Shown here in pieces: positions 9,706 to 16,289 of a stretch of DNA of 64,000 bases. Source of the DNA: Okamejei kenojei (lineage: Eukaryota). The position numbers and the translations under genes were made by a program. The DNA lies in assembly GCA_035221665.1 (NCBI GenBank), contig CM069152.1, positions 19,840,001-19,904,000 of the forward strand, given 5' to 3'. The notes beneath the pieces were generated by a model, which had not been told where the DNA came from, did not search any database, and saw nothing but the letters and a program-made list of their open reading frames with translations. The number at the start of each line of letters is the position of its first letter. Position 1 is the stretch's first letter.

Positions 9706-10734
9706 TTTTGAAGCACCTCAGTAAAAAGTCTTTGCATGTTTCACCATGTTAAATCTCCCTATGGAAGGGCACATTGTTTGTGGAATCGAACCCGATGGTG
9801 AAGTAGGCAGGAAATGTCTGCTGCTGCTGCTCTCTGTTCACTGTAAAACTATATTTAGGGAATGTACATTGACTACAGATTAGAAGTGCACAGGTTAATG
9901 TACATTTGGTCGAACTGAGGGTGGACTGGGCGAAGATATTGATTTGGTCTTTTGGAACAATTAAGTCATGTAAGTAAATGAAGGTGAGAGCTTCTGACTG
10001 ATAGTATTAGATAGGCATGACGGCTTGGGGTCACAGTGAATCGAAGGCACCATGTTGACCAATCCTAATTTTTTAGTGCTGCTTATTTCAACGCTACCTT
10101 TAAAACTCCATGTTTCATTGAGAAAAGTCATGATAATTATGTGGCTCATTCAATATTACTTTGGAACATTTCCAGGGCTCTTCCTGGGGTGATTTCTATG
10201 TCAGATACATGTCAGGTCATCGAGTCAGAGTCACACAGCACAGAAACAGGTCCTTTGGTCCAACTAGTCCATGTCGGCCAAATACCTATCAAAGCTAGTC
10301 CAATTTGCTCATTAGTTTAGTTTAGTTTAGAGATACCGAACAGATACAGGCTCCCACCGAGCCTGTGCCGACCAGCGATCCCTGCACATTATCCTACACA
10401 CTAGGGACAATTTACAATTCTTACCAAAGCCAATTTTACTTGAGTCACGTGAGTGATTCCGTGAAGAAGGCCCGCCAGGACGCCTGCGCAACATTACGTC
10501 AGCCGCATTGGCGCAAGCACCAGTCAGGCAGGACTGAGCTCCTGCCTGTGGTAAGTTAAACATTAAAGGTAAGTTTATTTTTACTTACCAGGGGTTTTAG
10601 GCAGGAGCCTCTTTTTACAGAGGTTTACTGCCAGTTCTGCAGCCCGACAACTTGCCGGTTATGGACTGTGGTGAAATTTCAGTCCGACCGCAAATGCGGA
10701 AAAACCGGCAAGATTGATTGGGTTGCGAGATAAG

Positions 10735-10975
10735 GAGCCGCTAACAGTGCAGTTAGCGGCTCCCCAGCTGCAGGAATGCCGTAAAAACGGCAAGAAATAA
10801 AGCGGAGTCGCTGACAGAGGGATCAGCGGCTCCCCAGCCTGCAGGGATGCCGTGGGAACGGCAAGGAATATTAAACTGAGTCGCTGACAGGGGGGTCAGC
10901 GGCTCCAAGCCTGTGGGATGCCGTTGAACGGCAAAGAAGCAACGCTGGAGCCACTGACAGTGGGGTCAGTGGCTC
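10735..10975 (+). repeat. About 70-bp tandem repeat, 3.4 copies, each full unit with two hairpins
   Basis: Units start at 10735, 10805, 10878 and 10948: GAGYCRCTRAC-N6-GTYAGYGGCTC, then TGCCGT-N3-5-ACGGCA. Confidence 0.9.
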
Positions 10976-11239
10976 ACAGACGTTGGTCCCCAGTCAAAAA
11001 ATTACTGGGACTAATTCAGCCCTCAGGTGAGTTGGGATATAAGGATTCTCCTTATAATTAAAAGTATATTTTATTGTGTTTTTCTTTGAGTAAAAAACTA
11101 AAGGAAAGTAACAAGTTATTGTTTTTTGATATTGTTCTGACAATGTTATTATTGTTTAAGCACAGGTTGCTATGATTTATATTTTCACAGGTAAAGCTGT
11201 ACACTAAATGTTGATTTAGTGAGCTTACACAGCAATAGT

Positions 11240-11717
11240 GTGGGCGTATGGGACAGGCCACGCCAGCAGCGCCTGACAGGGCTGCTTCATGTGTAAAATG
11301 TGCGGGCCTATGGGACAGGCCACGCCAGCAGCGCCGGACAGGGCTGCTTCATGTGTAAAATGTGCGGGCCTATGGGACAGGCCACGCCAGCAGCGCCTGA
11401 CAGGGCTGCTTCATGTGTAAAATGTGCGGGCCTATGGGACAGGCCGCGCCAGCAGCGCCGGACAGGGCTGCTTCATATATGAAAGTGCCGGCCTACGGGA
11501 GAACCGTGCCAGCAGTGCCTGATTCAGGGCTGCTTCATTTGTGACATTACCGGCCTATGGGAGAGCCGTATCAGCAGCGCCTGACAGGGCTGCTTCATGT
11601 GTGAAGTGCCGGCCTACGGGAGAGCCATGCCAACAGCGCCTGATGCAGGGCTGTTCATGACAAAAGCGCCGGCCTTTATGAAAGGTGCCGCCAGCAACGC
11701 CTGGCAGAGGGTTGCTC
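11240..11717 (+). repeat. About 62-bp tandem repeat, about 8 copies, diverging toward the 3' end
   Basis: Unit GTGCGGGCCTATGGGACAGGCCACGCCAGCAGCGCCTGACAGGGCTGCTTCATGTGTAAAAT; anchors at 11247, 11309, 11371, 11433, 11494, 11556 and 11615. Confidence 0.92.
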
Positions 11718-14199
11718 AAATTCACACATATCTGCTCGCCCACGGAGTCGGGAGATAATTCTCCACCGGGGTTAGAGAGCAAGGTCCACGGAGTCGGGGG
11801 ATAAATTCCTCACCGTGGCTGGATAGTGCGTTGAAATGACTATCCTTATACAGCAACTGTTGTATACAGTGCTGCAAAGGTCTCCCTCTCAGAGGCTGGG
11901 TCAGTATCCTGCTGACACTGAGTCTCAGGGTATGGCCGTGGGGCATACCCAAAGGGATGAAAGGCACGTGTCAGAGGTACCTTTCCTGACAATGAGTTGC
12001 CATCCCAGTAAAATATTCTATTGGGGTTAGGCCAATGGGTTCATATCAGTATTGTATCCTACGGCCTGCGGTAGCGCCTGTTAGAGTTGCCTACGAAAAA
12101 AAGGGAAGAGCAAAAGATCAAGATGACTCCGGGCTCTTAAGATGTCAACAGAACAGACTCAAGTACATATGTGCCGGCAGTGAACAACGGCAACAGGGGG
12201 ATGTGAGAGCCAGCCGCTGAATCGATTATTCAGGTAGGTCTATTCTACTGGGGCAGAAGCCTGGCAGATGAATTAATTCGGCCATGAATGGGCAGAAGTC
12301 ATCGTTCAGAATGCACCCCAGGTGCTCATCGGCAGTAGTGGTTCACTGGAGCTGGGGGCAGCATGATAGATCAGAAATTCCATGCACCTTCCAATCATGC
12401 TCAACTAAATGGGTCTAGCACTTCCAAAATCTGGGTAGTGCACCGTTCACAAGTTGAAATATTTATATTTGTTTATACAACACACAAGGGGTAAAATATC
12501 TGGTTGAGGCACAGCAGAGCATTCCAAGCAAGTTGGATTATGGCCAGGGTTTGGAAATTGGGCTCATGCAAACCACCCATGCAAAAGGCAGGATTGGCAT
12601 GTTATTATGAACAATAATGAGTATCTGGCAAATGAACTTCTGTATGTAAAAAAATTATTCCTGACTTCAACAGGTTCATGAGGTAAGAGATTCATGTTAT
12701 ACAAATCCCATTACAAAGGTTATCAAAGACAATATAACTGTACAATAACAGTAAGCTTTGCAGTATGGGATAAACTGTTGTTGGTCATTGGGATTTACCT
12801 ATAATTATTATTAGCGTTGTCTCCACCTTGGGGTTATACCAATCTGTTACTAAACTGATTAAAGTAATTGGCAATATAGCAGCTGGGTTGCAGCTGAGAT
12901 AATCAAGGAACTGATATTGTGTAAGTAGCAATTAGATCATTGCTAACAACCTTGTGCTATTGTCAGCTGAGACTACTTCAGCCACAATGATGAAGTAACA
13001 GTATTCAGCATTGCTGAACATGACCATACTCATTGAACTTGAACTTGAAACTCTCCACAGTAGTGTGGTCGGTTCAATTCAGTTATTATGAAATGATGTT
13101 AGAACTCTAAGATGAGAAGTTCCAAATACCATCACCTACTCAAAGGTAGTGGAGATTGTATGAGTACCAATTCTTCAGTTGTTGGTATCAACTAAATATA
13201 AACACTAAATGCACCGTTGAGTAAGGTTTTGAGTGAATATACATATTCTTCATGCACAAAGTTAAGTTGTTGCTCTACAATGGTGACATATGTTGGTCTC
13301 ATGGTAATTAGGAAGAATATCCTGTAATTAATCTCCTTGCCACTGGTGTATTGTCCAGTTTAGATTGATGATAACACAGAATAAATGTTGGATTTCAAAG
13401 TATGATGAAAGCATGATTCAATTCTTTATCAAATGTTTGTCATGTTTATGCATGTTCACTGTTTGCAAAAATATGTGACACAACAGTGTGGAGAAATATA
13501 TTCTCGTTTCAATAGGAGGAATGGACTTTATGTCTTCCTCATTAGCTGGGTCTTAAAACAGTCAGCTAGACCTCGTTTGGATTCGTACTATTGGACTGGC
13601 CAAGCGTCCATGTTGCCTGCTTCATCAGGCATTATGGCACAATGGTATTCAGTTATGCCAAAAAGCAAGAACTTGCTGTTTTAAACTGTGGTTCAGGAGA
13701 CTGGTCTTTGCACAGTAAACGATTATTGACTTACACATTTTCAATGGATTAACTTATGCCTCATGTTGTCACATTTAGCCATGAGGGTGTTCATTGCAGT
13801 ATGCATGGATAGCATCCAAAAAAGCAGTACATCTCTATTGAGGGGATCAGGAATGTTGTTAAATATCATGATACATTTGATATGATACAAATTACTGACA
13901 TTTCCAGTTCATTTTAAGTGATATTGACAATAGTTCAGTTATAGAGAAATGACAGCTGTAACATAAGGGAACTACATTGTCGGGTCCAACCCGGATATCA
14001 AGTTGTTAAAAAGATCTTGATACAAGTACTCACATCACAAGATTATGCAGTTGGTTATTGTAAATGTGTAAACATTATTCCGCCAAGGGGTTCCAGCTAC
14101 ATCCTTAGTCATGACTCTAATATCAGCACAACGACAGCAAAACATTGCAAACGCTGTGGCTGGACAGGATGGAATTGGCTGTTCATGCCATTACAGTTT

Positions 14200-14631
14200 A
14201 TAGTCTGGTCTACACTAGCAGAGCAGACCAGGGCTGGCATGGTTTTAAGATCATTTGAGTACCCCACTGTCTCAATTTATGTTATCAAGGCCACCAGAAT
14301 CCTTAGAAGTATGGATTCAGCACTGTGTATTCGTTAATAAACAATTACACAAGAAAAGGTCGGTTCAGACTATTTCAAGGTGGCTGCAACAGGTATTGAC
14401 ATTGACGATTGTATGTCTCATTCCACCAGGTCAGCATCAACATCAGTATATCATTTAGAGAGTGTGTTTACATCTCATTATACTAGGGCAGCAGCTATGT
14501 TGGCGGTCAAATGGAGGGATGTGTCCTTTGACCAAATTTTAGTGGCTGTTGGATGGGCTAATGTGCTGATGTTTCAGAAATGTATCATTGGCCAATTGTC
14601 AATCCAGGGCTGTTTGCCAATGTCATTTTAA
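14200..14631 (+). pseudogene. DIRS tyrosine recombinase, C-terminal remnant
   Basis: Frameshifted pieces KQLHKKRSVQTISRWLQQVL and GID...HSTRSASTS...HYTRAAA...FDQILVAVGWANVLMFQK match the HxxR...GW...F..Y catalytic segment of DIRS recombinases. The catalytic Tyr region is disrupted. Confidence 0.8.
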
Positions 14632-14799
14632 GTACCTAAATTTTAGGGGTACTGTTGTTTGTTTACATTGTTAAATAAAACCCTATCATTACATTGAATG
14701 CAATGTTATTACTAATGCATTTATTTCTCTTTCGAGTCAATCAAATGCAGTGGGATGCCGAGAATGTAATCTGCGGCATGAAATCACAAAGCTTTGAAA

Positions 14800-14911
14800 T
14801 CTTCACGGAATCACTCACGTGACTCCGAAGTAAAATAGTAAGATTAAACGAGAACTTACCAGTTTGAAGTTTGATCTTGATTTTATGAGGAGGAACGTTG
14901 GTGACTACGTG
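14800..14911. repeat. DIRS internal complementary region (circle-junction template)
   Basis: Reverse complement reads ...TTAATCTTACT-ATT-TTACTTCGGAGTCACGTGAGTGATTCCGTGAAGA, which is the right end fused to the left start. Confidence 0.9.
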
Positions 14912-16289
14912 CCCACCACGCCCAACCCTCTCTCATAAAAGATCATATGGTAGTTCTCGAGTCACTGATCTTACTGTTTACTTCGGGTGCTGTTTATTTG
15001 TGATTTCATACCGCTGCTTTGAAGTTTGCTGCGCAGGCGTCCTGGCGGGCCTTCTTCACGTAATCACCAACGTTCCTCCTCATAAAATCAAGATCAAACT
15101 TCAAACTGGTAAGTTCTCCTTTAATCTTACTATTAACCTGCAAACATGGGTCCCACCGAGCCTGTGCCGACCAGCGATCCCTGCACACTATCCTACATAC
15201 TAGGGACAATTTACAATTCTTACCAAAGCCAATTAACCTGCAAACATGGAGTATGGAGGAAACTGGCGCTCCTGGAGAAAACCCTCACAGTCACTGGGAG
15301 AACATCTGAACTCTGTACAGACAGCTCCCGTAGTCAGGATCTAACCAGGGTCGCTGGTGTTGTAATGCAGCAACTCTCCTGCAGTGCAACCGTTTGACAC
15401 ATGTCCCTTTAAACCTTTCCTATCCACATGACTGCATTCCCAGTATTGCCAGGGTATTAAGACTACTTAGCCACTGTTGGTCACACCCAGGAAACTTGGT
15501 GGAAGCAGCACTATGCTGGACTGGCAGCCACCCTCTTATCCTACATGGTGCCAGTGGCCAGACCGTCAAGCCAGTGCTGCGATGGCCTATGATGGTTCTC
15601 ACTGCTCATCCAATGCACCAATCCTCTATAGCATGAAACACCACTCATCTCACTACAACGCACCACCACCCCTCCTCTCTCACGCACATGCTCTGCTATC
15701 ACCAACCCTCCCGATATCCTTCATTTTGAACTCAGAAATAACAAGGAAGGAGAAGAGATATTCAAAACTAAAATAGGACATGTCAAAGGTTGTTGGAAAA
15801 AATGAGATCAGATGAGAGGAAATAGTGAGAGTTGGGAAAGTGACCCTGATAACACACCCACTGGTAGGTAAGTGATATCAAGCTAATGGATTTTCTGGAG
15901 AGCACGCGAAGGGGCAAGGAGAAACTTAATATTTAATATAACTACTTCATTCCACTTTTAATTAGTTTTTCTTGAAATACTTCTTCACCTGGATACAATA
16001 ATAGTGCAGAAATTCACAATGGAATATCCGGGTTGGATGATGAGCATAAATCTAGCTATTAATTTCAAAGTTATCCTGGGATGAATATGAAATGTGTTTT
16101 GAAGAGTGTATGCTTGCATGTGTCTGTATGTGCGTGTTTGAATGTGCGCAAGTGTGCACGTGTGTATGGGTGCACTTCTGTGTTTCAGTTTGTTTGTTTG
16201 TTTGTGTCAAATTTTGTGTAATAGAGTATGTGTGTTTGAGTATGTGTCATGTGTATGAAATTGTGCGTATCCATGAGTTTGAGTGTTTC

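Follow-up and report, generated by a model that had tools for sequence, protein, structure and literature searches.

The window analysed in this work, a 64,000-nucleotide stretch of contig CM069152.1 of Okamejei kenojei, contains on its plus strand a whole DIRS1-type element (positions 10434-15134) that starts with TTT, ends with ATT and belongs to a non-coding subfamily, here called Y. The Y element has a length of 4699 bp, and its longest stop-free frame spans 130 aa. The left terminus (10434-10493, plus strand) is the inverse of 14800-14825 (100%) and of 15027-15078 (88%), inverted terminal repeats being present at 10442-10493 and 15027-15078 (88% identity), and the right terminus, delimited by repeat comparison, consists of the inverted repeat plus a right extension (15027-15134, plus strand). 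An internal complementary region (ICR; 14800-14911, plus strand) is complementary to both element ends: it matches the left end at 14800-14825 (100%) and the right end at 14834-14911 against 15057-15134 (97%), and its halves overlap, as read from the sequence, on a 3-bp junction. The element is inserted in a SINE-like repeat with no target duplication, the window flanks rejoining the SINE at ATT, and the left junctions read NATTT in 62 of 78 cases, with 12 more ending in TTT; the 5' end is common to 30 aligned Y copies, whose flanks differ. The host SINE-like repeat (10349-10435 and 15148-15234) shows a tandem duplication of about 100 bp, with the element in the first copy, at ATT, and we take these flanking SINEs to resemble those of cartilaginous fishes. 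Inverted ends, an ICR and the lack of target duplication give the window element the DIRS1 layout, for which PMC3266345 describes inverted ends and an internal region that complements each of them, and confirm its original assignment to DIRS.

The coding content of the element is decayed. Pfam returned no domain in six frames of the element body, and the search for gag, RT/RNase H/methyltransferase and YR frames in the window element recovered only a gag remnant at the protein level (11899-11991, plus strand; tblastn 45%, E 2.4e-4) and a tyrosine-recombinase (YR) remnant in broken pieces (14139-14636, plus strand; tblastn E 3.7e-15, with a natural YR ORF from a coding copy as query). Since only these broken remnants remain, the window element is a non-autonomous derivative and not a coding member. 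The best-kept coding remnant in the non-coding lineage is the last half of the recombinase frame. Nine of the 10 non-coding elements cut out measure 4.45-4.85 kb, the other one 3.8 kb; a length constraint on this lineage is possible, its members having about the length of coding elements despite 20-30% drift in the middle.

Between 300 and 540 nt inside the 4.7-kb element lies a tandem array, recognized by TRF as 3.4 units of period 70, in which each unit begins with a stem-loop (SL1) made of 11-bp arms around a 6-nt loop. On the plus strand, unit 1 occupies 10735-10762 (pattern match) and is followed by a second, 6-bp stem (SL2; 10777-10792, from sequence and RNA fold); units 2 (10805-10832) and 3 (10878-10905), located by pattern match and copy comparison, each carry a U-G pair and are followed by SL2 at 10848-10863 and 10919-10933, respectively, both again from sequence and RNA fold. 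Unit 4 (10948-10975) has a perfect stem without SL2 after it, and is the positional homologue of the single gag hairpin of the coding families described below; it is a half unit, because the second stem occurs only three times. The arms originally quoted for units 1, 3 and 4 were recovered at these positions, and the proposed spacing of about 70 bp holds (70, 73 and 70). A degenerate 11-6-11 pattern gave seven strand-matches at four places of the array and none in 100 shuffles, and the region 10720-11030 folds as RNA with z-scores of -8.5 (plus) and -9.75 (minus).

Comparison of copies showed that the unit differences are family traits and not accidents of the window copy. Four units are present in 29 of 30 Y copies, so the array is fixed in the family; the U-G pairs of units 2 and 3 each occur in 29 of 30 copies and the A-T pair of unit 4 in 27 of 30, and only the mismatch at 10822 in unit 2 is private to the window copy (G in the other 29 aligned copies). 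Some details of the original prediction had to be amended. The G-U pairs of units 2 and 3 are real, but they had been read as derived from C-G, and U-G is the older state. The paired switch of unit 4 exists, but CG>CA together with CG>TG may come from CpG decay alone on both arms, and this double change therefore proves little by itself; the A-T pair carried by unit 1 lies outside CpG, and 5 of 14 older copies show its A-C intermediate. The second stem, described as invariant, is kept in three units, but it is missing after unit 4 and absent from the oldest subfamily (O, see below), and is thus young. Loop sequences do vary, whereas loop length is nearly constant: of 120 SL1 loops of subfamily Y, 114 have 6 nt.

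Rfam covariance models gave no match at E<=1 in 10300-15300, and a kissing-loop feature is absent, since the loops of the aligned families are not palindromic and only unit 1 has a 4-nt self-complementary core. As a weak lead, the loop region of unit 4 (10956-10966) has a possible long-range partner at 14261-14271 (plus strand), an 11-nt exact complement that falls within the recombinase remnant. By eye, complementarity is 9/11 in subfamily M2, 10 in M3 and 11 in Y, through one change per side; the match was found post hoc, with an estimated 0.07 expected by chance, and is not evident in coding families. Another long-range complement, of 9 nt at 12212, was rejected as within chance expectation.

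A second array of 62-bp double-hairpin units, from a later gag segment, extends over 11238-11716 (plus strand; 6.9 copies by TRF). Its arms show the same pattern as the first array, with compensatory changes outside CpG: there are three Watson-Crick arm variants in Y (seen 59, 23 and 16 times) and G-U intermediates in M2 (17 and 7 times), and no A-C variant was seen 4 or more times. The unit number varies among copies here as well, and the oldest subfamily repeats a longer gag segment at this place. Further hairpins of the Y 5' region occur at 10986-11011, 11038-11056 and 11740-11810, some of them more perfect than in older subfamilies, and a 46-nt doublet in the same region forms one long stem.

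The leader upstream of unit 1 is also structured. Hairpin H1 (10525-10548, plus strand; subfamily alignment) stands directly before a GT splice-donor-like site (10551), and one of its base pairs differs between subfamilies by a double transversion (T-A to A-T). Coding families (loci L046-L065) and non-coding ones alike have a hairpin ahead of a GT donor-like site that lies about 115 nt from the 5' end; for 7 of the 8 coding families folded, the 36 nt preceding the donor are predicted to form a hairpin, with a different sequence, the stretch folded for F3 having been anchored on a wrong donor. Hairpins H2 and H3 (10568-10632, plus strand) cover three further splice-like motifs (a second donor, a branch point and an acceptor), all read from the sequence. 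From the first gag codons, a multibranch domain, H4-H7 (10637-10728, plus strand; subfamily alignment), follows, which in O and M2 has GNRA loops on the sense strand.

Searches of the 2.76-Gb genome yielded 1671 first-look candidates for the family, and the 40 that were scored are 93-97% identical; 24 of 225 loci, which yielded no 5' end, do not enter the 5' analyses. In the 10 elements cut out (21 tried), the plus strand nowhere has a stop-free frame of 150 aa. Seven full Y copies share 92-95% identity with the window across the decayed middle, yet none of eight Y copies matched pol. Since Y copies are near-identical in the decayed middle and have no pol, the frames must have died before the subfamily spread, and therefore the proteins used by Y would have to come from elsewhere. 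Y thus fits the description of a uniform LARD-like multi-copy family without coding capacity.

Four related non-coding groups were distinguished (O, M2, M3 and Y), and a tree of the 3' kilobase, rooted on the coding families, places them in this order, with supports of 100/99 for coding plus O, 100/100 for M3 plus Y and 100/100 for Y. This tree lacks L074 and L085, which have no 3' match, L077 is only 19% filled, and the long branches of L069, L071, L078 and L079 are probably due to bad extraction. Along the series O, M2, M3 and Y the coding remnants fade. Nearly all copies of O (25 of 27) and M2 (24 of 25) have two SL1 units; the three M3 copies have two to four, and Y has four (29 of 30). 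The second stem first appears in M2, O having two other small hairpins at this place, and in O the SL1 spacer is of 7 nt in 24 of 27 first units. At the wobble position the pair is U-A in the coding families F2, F3, F7 and F8, U-G in O, in the last unit of M2 and in units 2 and 3 of Y, and C-G in units 1 and 4 of Y. This distribution is a stepwise path from U-A through U-G to C-G, in which U-G is older than C-G.

At least eight divergent coding DIRS families in this genome share the ends and the ICR, with 84-100% identity over the matched stretches, and copies within one coding family reach 99% identity, which indicates that this family spread recently. A coding relative with the same ends gave Pfam matches to RVT_1 (4e-22) and Phage_integrase (4e-11) and a weak one, below the cut-off, to Dam (0.003), with no RNase H match reported; in a Pfam search of the genome for Dam, 707 candidates came up, and none of the 150 that were scored matched. 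Subfamily O and coding family F2 are collinear (61% over 3 kb), with matches just after the last unit (E 6e-5) and over the second array (E 3.6e-31). Across the first array, the local DNA score between F2 and one O copy was 87.5 against a shuffle maximum of 68.5, and two other O copies gave marginal scores of 71 and 76 (shuffle maxima 71.5 and 72.5). By these comparisons, the SL1 unit is a tandem-multiplied piece of a former gag.

In seven coding families gag carries a stem-loop at the matching codon phase, its loop starting 273-311 nt from the 5' end, and despite the same codon phase these hairpins encode different peptides. Synonymous codons were used as a control for codon constraint in the coding families: the stems have 53 of 63 positions paired, against 31.8 +/- 3.1 with synonymous codons and a maximum of 48 in 20,000 draws. 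As a check on the coding-family windows, which had been picked by eye, SL1 was ranked among 217-228 gag windows per family, and its best ranks in the seven families were 1, 1, 2, 4, 4, 20 and 26. F2 was taken without two mis-anchored loci (L160 and L167), and F6, represented by one decayed copy, has no SL1 in register and stands outside the synonymous test. In the second array the hairpin beats synonymous codons at P<0.05 in two of the six coding copies matched, five further copies having no match. A further folding peak is seen about 425-450 nt from the 5' end, near an acidic gag motif, in six of seven coding families; a hairpin also exists there in O and M2 and is degraded in Y.

A gap-free covariation alignment of 14 hand-picked natural units, from five coding families and the non-coding groups, showed changes on both sides in 8 of 11 pairs, and 86.7% of its cells are paired; none of 500 shuffles was as high, which is not a probability, because the aligned rows are related, and slid controls reached at most 48%. 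In the same way, the counts given here are not independent events, since all the families are relatives within a single genome. Families F4 and F5 were left out of this alignment, and the homology of their hairpins, which differ in distance to the downstream acidic motif, is uncertain. The loops of SL1 are not alike from family to family and thus offer no evident conserved recognition sequence.

The region from the leader to unit 1 was compared in 38 copies, with helices chosen by eye. Between subfamilies, changed columns amounted to 17 of 108 paired against 45 of 111 unpaired positions in one comparison and to 9 of 119 against 25 of 112 in another (P 5e-5 and 0.003). All 12 one-sided stem changes between subfamilies exchange a Watson-Crick for a G-U pair, or the reverse, on the sense strand, and the H4-H7 domain holds 10 of them as well as one non-CpG double change; unlike these, the 99 private stem changes include 28 to G-U, 31 to A-C and 40 others (P 1.4e-6 for one-sided against private changes; P 7e-4 for G-U against A-C). 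Of the double changes in the leader, six preserve the pair, and three of these, as read from the alignment, fall outside CpG; one breaks a pair. In H6b, the per-copy count for group M gives two Watson-Crick to G-U changes and one double change to a mismatch. Some decay is found in Y, where the inner hairpin H6b has passed to G-U, G-U and a mismatch and the GNRA loop of H7 has been lost. In spite of this, the stems appear to be under selection, since they change less than unpaired positions and keep pairing. The claim of the original prediction that structure is conserved beyond sequence is thus supported by the double changes, the G-U-keeping changes and the synonymous-codon test, and the codon constraint that might have explained the pattern is ruled out in Y by stops in all three plus frames across the array.

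Because of the G-U-keeping changes and the GNRA loops, we infer that the folded molecule is the sense RNA. Predicted folding energy itself favours neither strand, the excess being larger on plus in 5, 8, 2, 10 and 1 of 12 copies of O, M2, Y, F2 and F3, respectively. An automated strand-neutral helix count gave 40 G-U and 22 A-C among 104 other mismatches, a permissive count in which chance helices dominate, and A-C pairs, equivalent to G-T on minus, are fixed in SL1 of the coding families F3 and F8. Along the element, predicted structure is densest in the 5' kilobase and around the ICR. Over the first 345 nt the fold excess over shuffles is 13 kcal/mol in F2, 7 in F3, 20 in O, 35 in M2 and 45 in Y, a trend that is hard to read because copy age confounds it.

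Taken together, these results lead us to hypothesize that the array is a multiplied gag stem-loop acting as a sense-RNA cis signal for capture by the Gag/RT of a coding relative, a reading to which we give a probability of roughly one half and in which capture means packaging or loading for reverse transcription. The sense RNA would probably start near the leader hairpin and form a series of stem-loops along the 5' kilobase, and SL1, single in coding gag, would be recognized by the Gag/RT of a coding relative, by which means the non-coding RNA could be packaged and copied; the ICR would then restore the element ends. In a lineage freed from coding, the signal could have been perfected and duplicated, and extra units may help the non-coding element to compete for helper proteins. 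Gag/RT as partner, the step concerned and any benefit of extra units are inferred. According to PMC7192593, the ICR of DIRS-1 restores the ends and is the only cis element there shown to be essential.

It is also possible, although rather unlikely, that the hairpins on the sense RNA serve its stability, nuclear export of unspliced RNA, the masking of splice sites or escape from silencing, and not capture by Gag/RT. The same covariation evidence applies to such roles, and H1-H3 lie before or over the splice-like motifs. No intron-less genomic copy was found for the one predicted junction searched, which is expected if only unspliced RNA moves, or without splicing. No GT..AG joint was seen in the leader of the window element and a coding copy in contigs from six runs of uncertain type, but such contigs are blind to strand and level and support no conclusion. 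SL1, however, is part of gag and sits some 100 nt downstream of the splice-like motifs. Translation control, one of the functions originally suggested for the array, is an unlikely reason for its retention because the element has no ORF.

The unit might instead be a neutral by-product, with GC-rich palindromes duplicated by slippage and arms matched by CpG decay and template switching without selection, and this we consider unlikely for the structure as a whole. The unit 4 double change and half of the leader double changes are of CpG type, and the unit number varies among copies. In addition, the 6-nt loop of unit 4 of one copy (L027; G000:C15:46059205-46059627, minus strand) is inverted between its arms, the only one of 223 loops, from which it follows that template switching occurs at the array palindromes. 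Nevertheless, homogenisation of the arms is rare, U-G having been kept in 128 of 138 cases and perfected to C-G in only 2. Non-CpG double changes occur in both the leader and the 62-bp array, one-sided changes, unlike private ones, all follow G-U, and in coding gag the hairpin is retained more than synonymous codons would predict. The neutral reading is viable only for the increase in unit number, which may be neutral slippage of a functional unit.

The G-U bias likewise bears on the proposal that the hairpins act in single-stranded minus cDNA, the true intermediate of DIRS elements, for example in second-strand priming, protection or circle formation. According to PMC7192593, DIRS-1 makes single-stranded, mostly linear cDNA; in our element the minus strand, folded as DNA, is strongly structured (z -13.2), A-C states on plus amount to G-T on minus, and the energy excess is about equal on both strands. 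On the other hand, there are 12 G-U and no A-C among the subfamily-level one-sided changes, the 62-bp array has passed through G-U intermediates and the GNRA loops are read on plus, which makes a role in cDNA improbable.

Sites of the dif/Xer type have an 11-6-11 layout. That each unit is a duplex DNA site for a dimeric protein, either a tyrosine-recombinase core of such a layout or a transcription-factor palindrome, is nevertheless highly improbable: the element family does encode a tyrosine recombinase, one spacer is inverted and the spacer is of 6 nt in all 33 perfect palindromes genome-wide (4-9 allowed), but these palindromes are probably related by descent (the 15 fetched are all from this lineage), the 7-nt spacer prevails in the first units of O, the arms vary from one coding family to another, one-sided changes obey the G-U rules, and in blast and repeat searches the unit resembled neither the ends nor the ICR.

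To return to a sense-RNA signal captured by Gag/RT, comparable arrangements are found in other elements. The retroviral packaging signal psi consists of stem-loops just after the splice donor that run into gag, with GNRA loops, and defective viral genomes can carry reiterated cis signals. Our element likewise has stem-loops from a donor-like site into gag, GNRA loops in its lineage and extra copies of the putative cis signal in a defective element, with the differences that a DIRS element is not a virus and has no envelope, and that the donor site here is only splice-like; on the parallel with reiterated signals, a literature search brought up just one paper, which was unrelated. We know of no tRNA primer site in DIRS. 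The primer of DIRS is given as unknown in the retrieved portions of PMC7192593.

Among LTR elements, Ty1 is the one that our model follows. According to the parts of PMC4974528 available, its packaging signals lie within the first 380-580 nt, and in a protein-less mini-Ty1 the first 380 nt and the 3' end suffice when proteins are supplied in trans. As in our element, structured RNA in the first few hundred nt overlaps gag and is kept in a protein-borrowing element; Ty1, however, belongs to another retroelement order, and the same parts describe no tandem multiplication. LARDs and TRIMs, as presented in the available sections of PMC7215508, are also large non-coding derivatives that form uniform spreading families with conserved RNA secondary structure, but instead of LTRs the present element has DIRS ends and an ICR, and its structures, which have been multiplied, can be followed back to particular gag codons in the coding relatives.

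With DIRS1-like elements, in the retrieved portions of PMC3266345, PMC7192593 and PMC9210276, the family shares inverted termini, the ICR and a trinucleotide junction without target duplication, and its coding relatives have the same gag, RT, methyltransferase-like and YR frames and a length of 4.5-4.8 kb; unlike them, the Y family is full-length yet non-coding, with two gag-derived hairpin arrays. Gag hairpins or arrays are not described in those portions, one of which proposes a single 3' hairpin as primer. In agreement with the original prediction, no prior description of DIRS gag hairpins or hairpin arrays was found in the literature searched, which did not cover subscription journals and Repbase reports, where this family may be described. 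Therefore, as far as the available parts of these sources go, what is new here is such a structure and array in DIRS, structured 5'/gag signals and structured non-coding derivatives being known for LTR elements.

Since proteins were lost while spread continued, the lineage shows which sequences matter in cis. A few stem-loops with an origin in gag codons of coding relatives, namely SL1, the leader domain and the 62-bp hairpin, thereby become testable candidates. More tentatively, and with less confidence than in the cis signal itself, this may be the first view of the DIRS packaging or loading signal, a stem-loop within gag that coding families conserve; a non-coding parasite lineage would have perfected and repeatedly multiplied two gag hairpins to out-compete its helpers for Gag/RT, a defective-interfering strategy within a genome. 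If unit number affects capture, the series from O to Y would be a rare natural record of a parasite of a parasite amplifying its signal stepwise.
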